Positions 9,393-16,588 of a stretch of DNA of 16,588 nt are shown here, piece by piece; position 1 is the first letter of the stretch; the number at the start of each line of letters is the position of its first letter. Origin of the DNA: an uncultured Deinococcales bacterium (GTDB taxonomy: Bacteria > Deinococcota > Deinococci > Deinococcales > JAAFIG01). The stretch covers positions 1 to 16,588 of the forward strand of contig CAXTKV010000115.1 in assembly GCA_964244895.1 (NCBI GenBank). The letters run 5' to 3'. Made by a program: the position numbers and the translations under genes. A model generated the notes under the pieces. That model had not been told where the DNA came from and did no database searches. It saw only the letters and a program-made list of their open reading frames with translations.

Positions 9393-9447
9393 CGAGAACA
9401 CCGTCCAGCACGATGTCGACTGAATCGCGTCCTGGACGGTGTTCTCG
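9393..9447. other. Intercistronic stem-loop between the substrate-binding protein and ATPase genes
   Basis: CGAGAACACCGTCCAG (9393-9408) and CTGGACGGTGTTCTCG (9432-9447) form a perfect 16-bp stem with no adjacent U-tract. Confidence 0.75.
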
Positions 9448-11445: not shown

Positions 11446-11681
11446 GAAGACCTCGTTGGGTGGATCGGGGCGCGTTCAGTTCGTGTGACCGCAGCCTCGC
11501 GCTCGGAACATCGTCCCGCACGCGCGCTCGGGTTGGCGTCTAGGACGGTCTTCGATGAGTCTGCGAGCGGCGAGAGGGCGTGTTCATTCGGCGGGTCATC
11601 TGGAGGATCGTGAAGGAAGCCGAAATCCTTCCCGCACGATCCTCACGGCGAGCGCAAACGGGGGCGCTGCGCCTTACTTGT

Positions 11682-12290
11682 TTACTTGCCGCCCACCGCG
11701 CGATACCCCGCAGCCTTCGCGTCATCCGGCGTGGCGAAGCAGGCTTTCGCCTTCGTCCTGGCGTAGTTCGAGTCGCCCGTGGGCAGATGATAGATCCCCT
11801 TCTTCGAGCCTTTCACGGGCGCGCTCGTCGGGCACGACCCGTCCGGGTTCGGTGCGATCCCCTTGCCCAGATTCGCGCTCGGCGTGTTCCTGGTCTTCGG
11901 TGTGGTTGCCGCGACAGTGGCAGTTCCCGCCGCTGCGGTTCCTACCGTACCGGCGGCCACAGCCGGTGGGTTGGCGGTCGTCGAGGCCGGTGCGGAGCCG
12001 AAGCTGATGAGCGGCTCGAGCTTCTTGACGCTCTTCTTGCCGATGCCGTTGACGCGGCTCGCCAGGTCGTTGACGTCCTTGAACGGGCGGTTCTTGATGA
12101 TCTCGTCGGCGATCTTTGAGCTGATGCCCGGCAGGGTTTCGAGCTGCTGGAGCGTCGCGCTGTTGATGTCGATCAGGGTTGAACTCGCCGTCGCGGGCGG
12201 GTTGGTGGTCGATTGCGCGAGGGTGGCAACGACTGGAAAAAGCGCAGCAGTTGCGGCCAGAATCGCGATTTTGATCATGTTTCGTGTCAA
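11682..12290 (-). CDS. Secreted ComEA-like helix-hairpin-helix DNA-binding protein with C-terminal Cys-containing (Ada-metal-binding/'sunset'-like) domain
   Basis: TTG start with GGAGG 5 nt upstream and a signal peptide. HhH pair IDINSATLQQLETLPGIS.KIADEII.NRPFK...L.SRVNGIG. C-terminal CP..APVKG...IYHLP...Y......CF.T...A.AAGYR. Confidence 0.85.
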   Translation of the reverse strand: MTRNMIKIAILAATAALFPVVATLAQSTTNPPATASSTLIDINSATLQQLETLPGISSKIADEIIKNRPFKDVNDLASRVNGIGKKSVKKLEPLISFGSAPASTTANPPAVAAGTVGTAAAGTATVAATTPKTRNTPSANLGKGIAPNPDGSCPTSAPVKGSKKGIYHLPTGDSNYARTKAKACFATPDDAKAAGYRAVGGK

Positions 12291-12404
12291 ATGAACCTCC
12301 TCGGGTCGGAATAGGTTCTCGGACTCCAGGGTGAACCCAGCGTGAAACAGTTGAACTCGCGCTGAAGATCGCGCCGCCGTAGCGCACGGCGTTGGCGCAC
12401 ACCG

Positions 12405-12719
12405 TTACCGACGCGCAGCCTGGCATTCGAAGGATGCGCATGAATGGTGAGCAATCGAGGACGCAGGTGCTACCTCCGACCATTCATCATTTGCCTCCCC
12501 TCGCCGGTGGCCGTATTCGGTGACTTGGTCGAATGACCAGGTGCGCCAGCGAGGTAATCGCACGCTATTCAGGAAAAATGACGGACTCATCCCTCGAGCG
12601 CGATCAAACCCAAATTGCGAAAGTGGGAGAATTCGTGCGTCGACGAGGCTTTCGAGTGTTGACTTACTCAGACCTGCTGGAGAAGTAGTCGAACCTGCCT
12701 GTGGTATCGGATTCGACAT
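12405..12719 (-). CDS. Hypothetical small protein directly downstream of XRE-1
   Basis: ATG lies 4 nt after the XRE-1 stop; 104-aa ORF in a visibly less GC-rich stretch with no motif. Confidence 0.3.
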   Translation of the reverse strand: MSNPIPQAGSTTSPAGLSKSTLESLVDARILPLSQFGFDRARGMSPSFFLNSVRLPRWRTWSFDQVTEYGHRRGEANDEWSEVAPASSIAHHSCASFECQAARR

Positions 12720-12723
12720 GGTT

Positions 12724-13002
12724 CTATTTCGTCCGCCGTTGGTTTGGCTCCGACAAGGTGACCAGCGCTCTCAACTCTACCGGTTCGTAAACCAGTTCGA
12801 AGGCGTAGACCTCGAGCGCGATCGCGATCTTGTTGATGACCTCTAGCCCTGGGTTCCTGCGTCGACCGCTCTCAAGGTTCTGAAGGTACTTTTCGCCCAG
12901 GCCCGCGCGCGTGGCGAGTTGCTCTTGCGTATAGCCTCGCGCCTCGCGCAGCAACCGAATCCGGTTGCGGAGCGTGTCGGCGTCGATGGCGTACTGGGGC
13001 AT
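12724..13002 (-). CDS. XRE/Cro-C1-type HTH transcriptional regulator (XRE-1, 92 aa)
   Basis: RIRLLREARGYTQEQLATRAGLGEKYLQNLESGRRRNPGLEVINKIAIALEV. The start at 13002 aligns ungapped with the XRE-2 Met. Confidence 0.93.
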   Translation of the reverse strand: MPQYAIDADTLRNRIRLLREARGYTQEQLATRAGLGEKYLQNLESGRRRNPGLEVINKIAIALEVYAFELVYEPVELRALVTLSEPNQRRTK

Positions 13003-13035
13003 GCCCTCGCACCGTACGGATTCGACCCCAGTCAA

Positions 13036-13057
13036 TACACCTCCGTATGGAGGTGTA
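13036..13057. promoter_or_regulatory. Palindromic operator 1 overlapping a plus-strand -10 (TAGAAT, 13056-13061)
   Basis: TACACCTCC-GTAT-GGAGGTGTA, between the divergent XRE-1 and lipoprotein genes. Confidence 0.8.
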
Positions 13058-13128
13058 GAATCTCGAGCGTACCCAACGACCCCGCCCGACAAGGCGGCGA
13101 TCGACCCAACCCGCACGCGGAGGATCGG

Positions 13129-14301
13129 ATGCCCGAGCAGACCCCAACCGTCGCACCCACCAACTACACATCGCTCCCACCCCACACCGTCACGGTTTCC
13201 CTGCGCATGGCCCAGGATCCCAGACCCGCCCTAAGGCGTCCTTACCCCCGCCGCGCGTGGTTCCCGCTCGCCCTCACGCTCGCTCTGCTCCCCGCCTGCG
13301 CCCCCCAACTTGCCGCTGGTAAATCCCGCACCGCGCTCGCCGTCGAACCCCTCCAACGCCTCCTGATCATGATGCGCAAAGGTGACATCGACGCCGTCAA
13401 CACCTTCCCAGTCGCCAACACGACCGCCGGAACCGACACCGACACCACTTCTATCCGTGCCTACGACCCCTTCCAGACGCGCGACCTCAAAGACCTGCTC
13501 GCGCGCTCCCCAAAGCTCAAAGAGGCTCTCGCTCGGATCGCCATCGATCCCGATCCGCCGTTCGTCGAGGAAGGCCAGGCGTTCCTCTCAGGCCAATCAT
13601 TCGAGGGGCAGCCGATCTACTTCTACTCGGGCCGCGTGATTTTCAAACTCGCTCTGCCGGACGCGCCAGCCGAGAAGTTCACCTTGACCTACTGGATCGA
13701 TGGGCCGAGGGTGACGTACGCCGACTCCGGGTTGAGCGGCCCTCGGGCGATGCTCGCCAACTACCGCCGCTACATCGAGTCGTATCCCGAGCGCGCGAAA
13801 CTGGCCGCGCCACCGGCTCAGGGCAACCCCAGCGCATCCGGGACGTCTAGCGCACCCTCGAGCACTCCAAACCTCCCAACAGCCTCCTCGGCTATCCCGC
13901 TGGCGGCGAACTCCGCAGTGCAACCGACGTTGCCCAGTTCGGCGGTGGCTTCCGCCTGGTGGCCGACCATCAACGCAGGTCAGACGTGGGACGTGACGGT
14001 GGGCCGCTACGCTTGGCGGGTGACGCTCACCCAGCGGGTCGAGCAGGCTGGAGCCTCGAGCATTGTCGGTTCGGCAGTGGGAACCACGGGCGGCGCGCCC
14101 GGTGCGATCGCGGCGTTCGCAATCGTGCCATCCTCGAGCGCGGTGATCCTGGCCTTGCAGAACGACGCGTTTAGCCTCAGGTGCGAGTTCAGCGCGGCGC
14201 AATCGGGCGGCACGAAGCTGGGCGGAATGGCGACGCTGCGCGCGGCACGCTCAAGGATAGACGAGGCCTTCGGGCCGTGCAGCGCTGCGCTCGAACGATG
14301 A
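13129..14301 (+). CDS. Putative two-domain lipoprotein of unknown function
   Basis: ATG 13129 with GGAGG SD (alternative ATG 13207). RRAWFPLALTLALLPA|C lipobox-like signal, Ser/Pro/Ala linker, and a beta-rich C-terminal domain with two Cys. Confidence 0.7.
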   Translation: MPEQTPTVAPTNYTSLPPHTVTVSLRMAQDPRPALRRPYPRRAWFPLALTLALLPACAPQLAAGKSRTALAVEPLQRLLIMMRKGDIDAVNTFPVANTTAGTDTDTTSIRAYDPFQTRDLKDLLARSPKLKEALARIAIDPDPPFVEEGQAFLSGQSFEGQPIYFYSGRVIFKLALPDAPAEKFTLTYWIDGPRVTYADSGLSGPRAMLANYRRYIESYPERAKLAAPPAQGNPSASGTSSAPSSTPNLPTASSAIPLAANSAVQPTLPSSAVASAWWPTINAGQTWDVTVGRYAWRVTLTQRVEQAGASSIVGSAVGTTGGAPGAIAAFAIVPSSSAVILALQNDAFSLRCEFSAAQSGGTKLGGMATLRAARSRIDEAFGPCSAALER

Positions 14302-14357
14302 ACCGCTGCACTCCGCCTCGCGCTCGCAAAAACGTGACGAGCATAGTCGGCAGGACC

Positions 14358-14615
14358 TCACGCCTCCAACTCGAGCATTTTTTTGAGTACATCAGGCTCG
14401 TAAAGGAGTCCGTATACGTGTACTTCGAGGGCGAGTGCGAGTCGGTTCAGTACATCCAGCCCTGGGTTTGCGCGACGGCCCAGTTCGAGATCCTGGATGT
14501 ACTTCTCGTGCAATCCGGCGCGCTCAGCCAGCTGTTCCTGGGTCAAGCTTCGGGCTTGGCGCAAGGCTCGAATGCGGCGCTGTAGTGTCCGGGGATCCAC
14601 CGTAAGGGCCGTCAT
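14358..14615 (-). CDS. XRE/Cro-C1-type HTH transcriptional regulator (XRE-2, 85 aa)
   Basis: RIRALRQARSLTQEQLAERAGLHEKYIQDLELGRRANPGLDVLNRLALALEV; paralog of XRE-1. Confidence 0.93.
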   Translation of the reverse strand: MTALTVDPRTLQRRIRALRQARSLTQEQLAERAGLHEKYIQDLELGRRANPGLDVLNRLALALEVHVYGLLYEPDVLKKMLELEA

Positions 14616-14650
14616 GCGTGAGGCCACGCTATGGAGTTCAACTACGAACG

Positions 14651-14672
14651 AACACCGTCAACTGACGGTGTA
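14651..14672. promoter_or_regulatory. Palindromic operator 2 overlapping a plus-strand -10 (TAAACT, 14671-14676)
   Basis: A-ACACCGTCA-AC-TGACGGTGT-A, between the divergent XRE-2 and the 589-aa gene. Confidence 0.8.
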
Positions 14673-14790
14673 AACTGCCTTTGCTTTTTGTACATATCAG
14701 CCCGTGTGCTTCGAACACCTACCCCGCCGGACTTCTCCCACTGCGACGTGCTGGCCGTATCGAACGATGCGGTTCCGCCTGGAGGAAACA

Positions 14791-16560
14791 ATGCCGAAAC
14801 GACGAATATTCCGATCCGTGACGCCCGGACAGTACGCGCAACTGAAACGGCTCATCACTCCTGCGCTCGTGAGCGGCAACGGCGTCGCGATCGAACCCGA
14901 TCCTGAACCGCTCGTACCGTTCGCCAACACTTGCGGTCCGCGTGTTTACGTCGCGCGTCGGCAGCGAGGATGGAGCGCGACCCGGCTCGCAAGCGAGGTC
15001 AACGTCCTGCTCGAGTCTTTAAGCGCAGAGCCCCCCGAGATCATTCCGGGCGAGTTCATGGTCGGCGACCTCCAGCGCGAGCGCGCGGCGTTTTTCGGCA
15101 CCAAGGGGCGGCTATGGAACGGATTCTTGGCGACAGACAAGCACCGGGCTGCCGTCGCACCATCGACGCGACCCCGACGGCTGAGCGCGCGCTCGGTCAT
15201 CGGCATCGAACAGCGCGAACTCTGCGTGAGCGACACGCTGCTGGACCCCCTGGCGACCGTCCTCGGCGTCCCGAAACACTGGCTACAAGACGAGCGCGCC
15301 GTCTGGCCACCCGAGACCGGAAGTGCGAACCCGGACGAGCTAACCGCTGCACTTGATCTCCTCGAGGGAGGCGATGGGCTCGAGTCGGGCGAGTTCGCGT
15401 GGCTCCGGCCCGTTCTGGCGGAACCCGCCGCACTCAGGGTGATCGAATCGGCCTGCGGCGCGCTCGCGCGCTACGGGGATCCAACGATGAAAATCATGAA
15501 GACTGAAATGCTTCAGGTCGACCGGCTCGAGCGCACCTGGCGACGGATTTTCGGGGGATTGCCCGAGGCTCCTTGGTTTACGGACACGTGGGAGGTGCAG
15601 CTGCAAGACCTCGACCCTCTGGACGACGCGTTCGAGCAGCATCGAATGTGGCTGCGCGACGCAATCCGTAACGACATCAGATTCCGCGAGACACTCGCCG
15701 AGCGTCGGGCGTACGCCAACGGCGTGAACGACGCCCGACGCGAGACGCTGGTCAAGTTGAGCGCCGTTCAGCGCGCGGTTCATGAAACGTTCGGCTCAAA
15801 AGATGAGTTCGAGGCTCCGCTCGAGGTGCTGCGGCTGCGCGCTGAACTCGAACGCGCGCAATCCGAAATTGCGACGATGCACCACCAAAATATATCCGCA
15901 GTCCGAGCGCTCGAGGAGGTGAACAAAACCAACAAACGGTTGGAAAAAAATCTGGCGGACTTTCAAAGTGCGGTGCGACCTGCGACGCCCATCCCAACAC
16001 GATCAGAACTGGTTCGATTTGCGGAGCAGTACGAAGTGCTCGAGCCGAGGGGGCCGATCCCCGCCTCGAGTGAGGAGCTGACCACAGCCTTGACCCAATT
16101 CCTGATCGAACTGCGCGCTTTCCTCGACGAGCAGCTGAGCGAGCGAGATGCGCTGGCCCACGAGCGCGAACAGCGCACGCTGATCCGCATCGAGACGCAG
16201 ATGCGCAAGATGGTCGAGCAGTTCGAGCAGATCCGGGCGCGCGTTCGAGCGCAGAACGCGCCAGCGCCTCAAGGCAACCCCAGCCCTTCGCGGCCAGCAG
16301 CGGGCAGCGGATCGGCGCGCACCGCACCCCCGAAGTACACGACCGCCGAAGCACGCGAGATCGAGCGCGTATCGGGCAGCATCGTCGCGTCGCTGCGCGC
16401 AAACACAAACCGCGAAATGACAAAATCGGTGATCGCCTCCCGGCACACCGACGAGGACAAGCGTTACCTGGCTGCGGCGTACCAGCACCTCGAGAGCAAC
16501 CGTGTCATCAGCATCGTCGGCAACACGGTAAAGTGGGCGTGTCAAGCGAAGTGTGGCTAA
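14791..16560 (+). CDS. Uncharacterised 589-aa protein: interrupted XRE-like HTH, coiled coils, C-terminal winged-helix-like domain
   Basis: GGAGG SD 5 nt before ATG 14791. GPRVYVARRQRGWSATRLASEV...LSARSVIGIEQR...LDPLATVLGVPKHWL, heptad-rich LRLRAELERAQSEI...LEKNL, and C-terminal MTKSVIASR...LAAAYQHLESNRVISIVGNTVKW. Confidence 0.75.
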   Translation: MPKRRIFRSVTPGQYAQLKRLITPALVSGNGVAIEPDPEPLVPFANTCGPRVYVARRQRGWSATRLASEVNVLLESLSAEPPEIIPGEFMVGDLQRERAAFFGTKGRLWNGFLATDKHRAAVAPSTRPRRLSARSVIGIEQRELCVSDTLLDPLATVLGVPKHWLQDERAVWPPETGSANPDELTAALDLLEGGDGLESGEFAWLRPVLAEPAALRVIESACGALARYGDPTMKIMKTEMLQVDRLERTWRRIFGGLPEAPWFTDTWEVQLQDLDPLDDAFEQHRMWLRDAIRNDIRFRETLAERRAYANGVNDARRETLVKLSAVQRAVHETFGSKDEFEAPLEVLRLRAELERAQSEIATMHHQNISAVRALEEVNKTNKRLEKNLADFQSAVRPATPIPTRSELVRFAEQYEVLEPRGPIPASSEELTTALTQFLIELRAFLDEQLSERDALAHEREQRTLIRIETQMRKMVEQFEQIRARVRAQNAPAPQGNPSPSRPAAGSGSARTAPPKYTTAEAREIERVSGSIVASLRANTNREMTKSVIASRHTDEDKRYLAAAYQHLESNRVISIVGNTVKWACQAKCG

Positions 16561-16588
16561 CGGCTTTCACACCGGCATCCGATCCTCG

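Follow-up and report, generated by a model that had tools for sequence, protein, structure and literature searches.

The window analyzed here, a stretch of 16,588 nucleotides (nt), is the entire contig C115 of a 5.12-Mb assembly of an uncultured Deinococcales bacterium (5,118,702 genomic 20-mers, 91% complete). It harbors two modules in tandem, each with a small helix-turn-helix (HTH) regulator of the XRE type, a palindrome just upstream of the regulator gene and a divergent gene of another kind. The two modules are probably (at a rough probability of 0.62, judged from sequence) old paralogous and self-contained XRE switches, of which module 2 would be a stranded copy of a cassette recurring on mobile elements of Deinococcales. 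According to the proposed mechanism, the one palindrome preceding each XRE gene is the likely binding site of a dimer of that XRE, and the bound dimer would probably switch on the leaderless XRE promoter and shut down the cargo gene's divergent promoter; entry of the DNA into a cell lacking the XRE would then give a burst of cargo expression (zygotic induction), followed by shut-off. In the recurring cassette, the XRE would be divergent from an operon whose last gene encodes a coiled-coil protein with the C-terminal domain described below, and in module 1 an envelope cargo gene would occupy the same slot. The features are as follows (aa, amino acids; ORF, open reading frame).

12724..13002, minus strand: XRE1, 92-aa HTH_3 regulator, predicted leaderless; helix GEKYLQNLE (G36, N42)
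13011..13016, minus strand: predicted -10 hexamer (TACGGT) of XRE1; distance to the operator core 22 nt, to the ATG downstream 8 nt
13037..13056, no strand: predicted operator 1, ACACC-TCC-GTAT-GGA-GGTGT, 34 nt before the XRE1 start codon
13056..13061, plus strand: predicted divergent -10 box of the lipoprotein gene, TAGAAT, overlapping the last base of operator 1
13129..14301, plus strand: 390-aa likely lipoprotein, divergent from XRE1; LLPA-C, with the Cys conserved in 3 of 3
14358..14615, minus strand: XRE2, 85-aa HTH_3 regulator, predicted near-leaderless; helix HEKYIQDLE (H36, D42)
14626..14631, minus strand: predicted -10 hexamer (TAGCGT) of XRE2; distance to the operator core 22 nt, to the ATG downstream 10 nt
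14652..14671, no strand: predicted operator 2, ACACC-GTC-AACT-GAC-GGTGT, 36 nt before the XRE2 start codon
14671..14676, plus strand: predicted divergent -10 box of the 589-aa gene, TAAACT, with TAnnnT geometry
14791..16560, plus strand: 589-aa protein, divergent from XRE2; split XRE-like HTH, coiled coils, linker and C-terminal domain
16535..16588, plus strand: end of a multicopy insertion element at the contig break; supplies codons 583-589 and part of codon 582 of the 589-aa ORF

Both regulators belong to the HTH_3 family, scoring 52.4 bits (XRE1) and 50.2 bits (XRE2) against a curated Pfam cut-off of 23. A preliminary description had reported the arrangement of XRE, palindrome and divergent gene twice in tandem, and this was borne out by the two HTH_3 assignments, the palindromes 34 and 36 nt upstream and the coding nature of both divergent ORFs. 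Recomparison also reproduced its gapless alignment of XRE1 with XRE2 (47 of 85 residues identical). The recognition helices, described there as near-identical, are mostly alike but not at positions 36 and 42, nor are the two operators the same. At the DNA level, the two genes can be aligned over 172 nt only, with 68% identity. Phylogenetic analysis placed a JGI protein, P0003, as the sister of XRE1 (67-72% identity, support 98/88), with XRE2 joining this pair next (96/87). Since so little of the DNA remains alignable and P0003 is nearer to XRE1 than XRE2 is, the duplication is old. A third paralog, XRE3, lies on contig C191 of the same assembly. When 363 genomes of the order Deinococcales were searched with a profile, five strong members of the XRE group emerged (E 2.5e-41 to 2.6e-35), distributed over three genomes of a single family, the next-best match being at E 6.9e-18. 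No match to XRE1 at E 1e-6 was found among plasmids, scans of metagenomes and viral sequences returned generic XREs only (the closest in viral contigs at E 4e-9), and literature searches, with subscription papers largely outside their scope, found nothing on the group or its motif.

Both palindromes are very likely operators, as their form, position and recurrence suggest. Operator 1 consists of the arms ACACCTCC and GGAGGTGT around GTAT (9 bp counting the flanks) and operator 2 of ACACCGTC and GACGGTGT around a 4-nt spacer, AACT. Perfect 8-bp arms with a 4-nt spacer are present in just 332 of the 5,118,702 genomic 20-mers, which argues against chance. The frame ACACC-N10-GGTGT occurs five times in the assembly, and three of these precede the three paralogous XREs, in the case of XRE3 by 34 nt from the start codon. 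All five members of the XRE group carry a core of the form ACC-xyz-n4-z'y'x'-GGT 33-36 nt before the ATG, and the linkage of the palindrome to homologous XREs, a check set beforehand, thus extends to the whole group. The inner triplets of the five operators (TCC, GTC, TCA, GTA and GGA) are mirrored on the opposite arm, with one mismatch at C191. Each locus has a single operator at up to two mismatches in 16 arm bases, with the palindrome conserved. The control set of 159 XRE rows was reduced by three rows with too little upstream DNA, the five group members and two fragments of XRE1 and XRE2; the core motif was present at 25-45 nt in none of the remaining 149 or so (at least two of these stand at locus edges without true upstream DNA, which makes n slightly smaller), and on contig C271 it was found 23 nt from the model anchor. 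The latter locus (G000:C271:1228-1243, L119) encodes a more distant XRE whose upstream core has one mismatch and faces a divergent gene, without the -10 geometry. Two-sided compensatory change was seen in seven cells of the alignment, a value reached by 1 of 500 shuffles, with 0-2 in slid controls, the structure having been derived from the same sequences. The alignment columns invariant in all five loci comprise ACC, GGT, a single A preceding the core, and T-A-T of the -10 box on the XRE side. No XRE was found beside any of the 120 viral matches to operator 1, of which 80 had full flanks.

The position of the operators relative to predicted promoters is equally regular. On the XRE side, a TAnnnT box starts 22, 22, 22, 22 and 23 nt after the core at the five loci and ends 6-10 nt before the ATG. 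In the accessible text of one study, TANNNT 6-7 bp before the ORF is a mark of leaderless genes in Deinococcus-Thermus (PMC12340547); because the box layout here matches that of the phylum's leaderless genes, the XRE mRNAs are predicted to be leaderless. On the opposite strand, each of the five loci has a TAnnnT starting 15-18 nt from the core's first base. Among 498 strand-wise matches to the core in the genome, 6 have the XRE-side -10 box, 14 the divergent one and 3 both, and these three are exactly the three XRE operators, from whose loci the distance windows were taken. When the first T of TAnnnT is taken as -12, the core spans approximately -50 to -35 of the XRE promoter (centered near -42.5) and -29 to -14 of the divergent promoter. 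A center near -42 is where activators contacting sigma region 4 typically bind, as at lambda OR2, and coverage of about -29 to -14 is a typical position for repression. The geometry therefore predicts self-activation of the XRE and repression of the divergent gene, as for lambda cI or VpxR. Transcription is predicted to begin no more than 4 nt from the ATG of each XRE and, for the two divergent genes, near 13068 and 14683. A scan of the window for the sigma-70 consensus found no promoter, and no TTGACA-like -35 element was seen.

The same operators, with the same insulation between modules, could instead serve an XRE that represses both promoters (negative autoregulation) and activates nothing, an explanation considered unlikely, though the strongest of the competitors. 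It gains from the operator core reaching the -35 position of the XRE promoter and from precedents in the accessible portions of two reports, in which some type I-F3b Xre proteins repress their own promoter (bioRxiv 10.1101/2020.07.02.184150) and DdrO represses itself (PMC6868357). However, the distance from the core to the -10 box is held at 22-23 nt on the XRE side and floats over 15-18 nt on the divergent side, and a fixed spacing would be expected of contact with polymerase rather than of a steric block. Moreover, the XRE promoter has no TTGACA-like -35 and is therefore probably weak unaided. Self-activation combined with repression of the cargo gene is thus preferred.

The two XREs had further been proposed to co-regulate the lipoprotein and the 589-aa protein as a regulon. 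The full architecture, however, occurs only three times in the assembly, each time beside its own XRE, and nothing in the assembled sequence points to a wider regulon, because both -10 boxes are present only at these three operators. Co-regulation of the two cargo genes did not stand either, since their operators differ: operators 1 and 2 are distinct at 4 of 12 core arm bases (TCC versus GTC), and operator 1 differs from that of C191 at 2 of 12. This difference makes insulation likelier than cross-talk, and the prediction is that XRE1 and XRE2 for the most part act independently. Across the tree, helix residues 36 and 42 track the first variable operator base (G with N or K corresponds to T; H, N or S with D corresponds to G). 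Purely as a hypothesis, these two residues may read that base; position 42 presumably is base-contacting in 434-type HTHs. For P0003, which has G36 and N42, the hypothesis predicts an operator ACC-TCx-n4-xGA-GGT at 33-36 nt from the ATG.

A single coordinated system, in which XRE1 and XRE2 cross-bind or form heterodimers and jointly control both cargo genes, appears doubtful on this evidence. The modules are adjacent and co-oriented, their XREs are close in the tree, and the outer arms ACACC/GGTGT are common to both operators. In addition, the cargo genes have in common an in-frame 33-nt stretch of their linkers (13806-13838 and 16257-16289) that is identical at 28 of 33 positions; it is the sole such pair in the genome at a threshold of at least 25 of 33, and 0 of 200 local codon shuffles reach this likeness, which hints at a shared local history of the two genes. 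Against coordination stand the different inner triplets, by which operator 1 is nearer to the unlinked C191 operator than to its neighbor, and the confinement of tandem stacking to this window, the three other group members with readable context being single. Besides, in the contexts read, lipoprotein homologs and relatives of the 589-aa protein were never neighbors, and within two mismatches in 16 arm bases the only further or hybrid operator sites were the one on C191 and one on C20 (for operator 1).

The 8-bp arms of operator 2 also form the ends of an abundant repeat of this genome that resembles repetitive extragenic palindromic (REP) elements. ACACCGTC occurs 2,808 times here versus 40-259 times in each of 18 relatives, from all of which the exact REP-like palindrome is absent. 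Copies of the repeat have spacers of 28 nt (373), 38-39 nt (119) or 3 nt (116), two of them lie within the window (9397-9443 and 11507-11552), and no Y1 transposase was found in the 91% complete assembly. It is nevertheless very improbable that palindrome 2 stems from, or is tied to, this repeat, with XRE2 binding the repeat ends as a decoy sink or as genome-wide sites: although 116 copies have the same arms with a 3-nt spacer and the outer arms ACACC/GGTGT are found in all three operators here and not fully in genomes G001 and G008, operator 2 is the only one of 117 short-spacer ACACCGTC/GACGGTGT pairs with a 4-nt spacer, its center AACT is unlike the CWG-type center or the 27-39-nt spacer of the repeat, of which it is therefore not a member, and its position and -10 geometry agree with those of operators whose genomes lack the repeat. 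The strict spacing that HTH dimers usually require also counts against this explanation, as does the lack of amplification of the G001 and G008 operators, with one copy each in their own genomes. The idea that the repeat of each host matches its own operator was rejected on the same ground.

Both cargo genes have positive codon-usage scores (0.154 for the lipoprotein gene and 0.135 for the 589-aa gene) with all alternative frames negative, and each has a GGAGG ribosome site. The HTH and coiled-coil nature attributed earlier to the 589-aa protein was supported. Its XRE-like HTH is formed by residues 49-74 and 132-164, interrupted by an insertion of approximately 57 residues. A split profile scored 26.5 bits versus a maximum of 11.2 in 150 shuffles, with the split point chosen post hoc; the unsplit XRE hidden Markov model gave a non-significant 3.4 bits (top shuffles 4.1-5.5). 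Further matches were to the phrog_2328 repressor (E 1.6e-4) and to Atlas HTH clusters (at 0.90). Coiled coils in the form of long helices follow at about 275-488, and then a Pro/Ala/Ser linker. The AlphaFold model has a predicted local distance difference test score (pLDDT) of 43.7, which is too poor for a structure search and unreliable beyond the long helices. A whole-protein homolog search returned the protein itself only (1 among 8000 candidates scored), and P0004, a low-complexity match, was rejected as spurious.

The C-terminal domain of the 589-aa protein (about 506-581) belongs to an unnamed Deinococcales family, which was traced from two weak genome matches (27% identity). A profile of this domain found nine matches, the window included, in six genomes, all from the same bacterial family as the window; there was nothing in the PDB or in viral contigs and nothing meaningful in Pfam, and for this reason the label winged-helix-like is given by inspection only. 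Three of the nine matches are cut by contig starts. In all six loci with readable upstream DNA (the window, G001:C774, G002:C55, G007:C418, G013:C77 and G000:C235), a divergent XRE heads the gene run, adjoining the family gene in two cases and separated from it by one or two genes in four. These XREs belong to several groups, several of them with their own, different palindromes. The intervening gene represents another unnamed family, which is also divergent from XRE3 and from the XRE of G008. Two scanned relatives of the 589-aa protein have a weak N-terminal or central match to a Zn ribbon, not an HTH. The earlier suggestion of a reusable XRE-operator switch cassette is supported.

The likely lipoprotein of module 1 consists of an N-terminal alpha/beta domain, a Pro/Ala/Ser linker and a C-terminal predicted 8-stranded, avidin-like beta-barrel. 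It has two close homologs, P0005 (64%) and P0006 (53%), and no Pfam, PHROG, NCBIfam or PADLOC family; elsewhere among the 363 genomes, there were just weak matches to the C-terminal domain, in 22 other genomes. In a structure model with a pLDDT of 59, the barrel matched designed barrels and avidins alike (Z 9.6-10.9, root-mean-square deviation about 2.9, about 100 residues aligned, 6-13% identity), and Foldseek gave nothing at E<=0.001. The avidin-like fold of the model does not imply biotin binding. Secreted-looking genes, judged by eye from N-terminal sequence, occupy the first divergent slot also at C235 and G001:C66. The XRE of the latter locus lies upstream of a PIN-domain pair.

An association with mobile elements, which had also been suggested, is seen at homologous loci, namely C191 and contig C14 of G008; the window contig ends at an insertion element and shows no mobility gene of its own. 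The order on C191 is tniB, tniQ, the XRE3 cassette, a 1267-aa orphan and a tyrosine recombinase, and the recombinase on C235 is 88% identical to that of C191. The orphan (L021:4626-8429), downstream of XRE3 and between tniQ and the recombinase, had no match in Pfam, PADLOC or PHROG and is a candidate defense cargo. G008:C14 carries a Tn7-like element of about 49 kb next to tRNA-Met (about 10.3-59.2 kb; L022:9445-15163 and L199:6324-9682). At one end it has tniB and an 837-aa transposase-like gene (labeled by inspection, no NCBIfam match), and at the other end an XRE directly before tniQ-cas5-cas8c-cas7 (Cas5d, Csd1 and Cas7; type I-C). Related end repeats are present at both ends, and three end repeats together with three degenerate CRISPR-like repeats stand beside the tRNA-Met; none of the spacers matched the tRNA flank, and cas3 and cas1 were not among the ORFs listed for the two element ends read. 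The adjacency of tniQ to the cas genes, the mini-array and the tRNA site make the element look like a type I-C CRISPR-associated transposon (CAST). In the accessible text of bioRxiv 10.1101/2021.08.16.456562, I-C CASTs have tniQ next to tnsABC, with no array and no tRNA site.

Several other loci place Cascade-type genes beside such cassettes. A second tniQ-cas5-cas8c-cas7 cluster, 31-53% identical to that of G008, was found on G007:C418 (L234:219-8209); after it come an XRE cassette and a gene for a relative of the 589-aa protein. On G002:C55 (L237:3380-6222), a type I-E-like Cascade, with cse1 weak and cas7 above the cut-off, lies by the same type of XRE cassette, and on G000:C235 (L241:1-1225) ORFs similar by eye to a type I-E-like Cascade are beside the same cassette type. 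The possibility of a defense island at the window itself found no backing, since only a weak ZorA coiled-coil match was obtained from PADLOC (E 0.006).

Among known systems, the nearest counterpart is VpxR (VPA1391), which resides on a Tn7-like CAST island and, as shown experimentally, activates itself and represses a divergent hypothetical gene (PMC12150760, accessible text). The zygotic-induction logic of Xre on Tn7-CRISPR-Cas transposons is set out in the accessible part of bioRxiv 10.1101/2020.07.02.184150. Like VpxR and the type I-F3 Xre as portrayed in these texts, the homologs of the present XREs are small, stand-alone regulators on Tn7-like elements, with the same predicted switch logic, and in G008 the homolog takes the position of I-F3 Xre genes, with tniB on one side and tniQ-cas on the other. 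Unlike in type I-F3, the operator is a different one, the host is a member of the Deinococcales, the Cascade is of type I-C (G008), and the window contig is without transposon genes, so that a position between tnsABC and tniQ-cas does not apply; moreover, the exact-arm G008 operator occurs once in its own genome, with no further copy (degenerate copies were not searched there).

Controller (C) proteins of restriction-modification (R-M) systems (for example the C.AhdI, C.BclI and C.Esp1396I types; PMC2632904, accessible text) are similar in XRE fold, size, a palindrome just upstream of the gene, leaderless mRNA, a motif that tracks the protein clade and a zygotic-induction circuit. The XRE also matches the PADLOC Control_protein model (E 2.7e-8), with PDB matches too. 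However, no R-M genes were among the ORFs scanned in the window, C191 and G008:C14, and there is one operator rather than a double box or a weaker downstream copy (at up to two mismatches in 16 arm bases). Lambdoid cI/cro has divergent promoters around shared operators, three in number, and a peptidase domain on the repressor. The likeness lies in the divergent promoters with a common operator and in the XRE-like HTH encoded by the divergent gene of module 2, whereas here there is one operator, the XREs are without a peptidase domain and the window has no phage genes. DdrO (PDB 6rnz and 6jq1), from the same bacterial order, is the best solved-structure match of the HTH domain (E 4.6e-13), but the match covers only residues 2-63 of its 129, with alignments ending at 62-66. 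Its C-terminal dimerization and IrrE-cleavage domain is unmatched (the XREs have 85-92 aa), and the site is not the 17-bp radiation/desiccation response motif of DdrO (PMC6868357, accessible text). By the features tested, the XRE group is thus not a C-protein, DdrO, prophage cI or I-F3 Xre group; the type of switch is known (most like VpxR). What appears to be new is the family of operators, that of the cargo proteins and the connection with elements bearing an I-C Cascade.

Several observations weigh against the interpretation as paralogous switches with a stranded cassette copy. Apart from the insertion sequence (IS) end, the window contig has no transposase, integrase, other mobility gene or att site, and the G+C content of 11570-16534 (63.1%) is close to the genome mean of 62.7%, so that recent mobility of the window copy is not shown. 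The group comprises five loci in three genomes, and the tree does not settle its monophyly. The covariation between residues and bases is weak, with 4 of 52 variable columns splitting the five loci identically. Since the five loci themselves supplied both the core motif and the distance windows, the 5/5 linkage is partly a matter of construction; the independent parts of the operator evidence are the genome-wide 3 of 498 and the outgroup XREs. Finally, activation is predicted from the position of the operator only, by analogy of -42 to lambda OR2.

From about 11560 to its end, the window has no repeat element and shows lower codon scores. The sequence of the element end at 16535 is present at eight contig ends. 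Although the last eight codons of the 589-aa ORF derive wholly or partly from this element, little of the gene may be lost, since its homologs extend approximately 6 to 25 residues past the junction. The element, putatively IS256-like by its end sequences only, had no identifiable match for the other side of its insertion among the contig ends. Contig ends C173, C240 and C246 carry a second element end resembling that at 16535, and the two may be the opposite inverted repeats of one IS. Elsewhere in the window, a ComEA-like helix-hairpin-helix protein is encoded at 11682-12290 (minus strand), with a weakly matched C-terminal Ada-type metal-binding domain, and similar helix-hairpin-helix domains occur at four further loci of the genome. 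The ORF at 12405-12719 has a non-coding codon-usage score, a hairpin at 174-207 with perfect 16-bp arms is unrelated to the operators, and no tRNA was found in the window.

The logic of the switch is itself already well known. A far-reaching picture, in which the XRE group forms natural orthogonal switches of one operator each, with a simple code in residues 36 and 42 for the first variable base, is freely exchanged between cargo genes and controls both an undescribed coiled-coil DNA-binding family and I-C CASTs of Deinococcales, with the XRE2 half-site amplified about 2,800 times in this genome as the REP-like repeat, is a long shot; if true, one regulator from a mobile element would be titrated by, or would be reading, the whole chromosome. 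More immediately, the analysis offers a precise and testable operator and promoter architecture for an XRE group of an uncultured Deinococcales family, and its five natural operator variants may be of use as regulatory parts insulated from one another, or for probing HTH specificity on a small scale. Tn7-like elements bearing a type I-C Cascade are further indicated for this family, and the analysis places an apparent orphan, the 589-aa gene, in a cassette that probably recurs on mobile elements.

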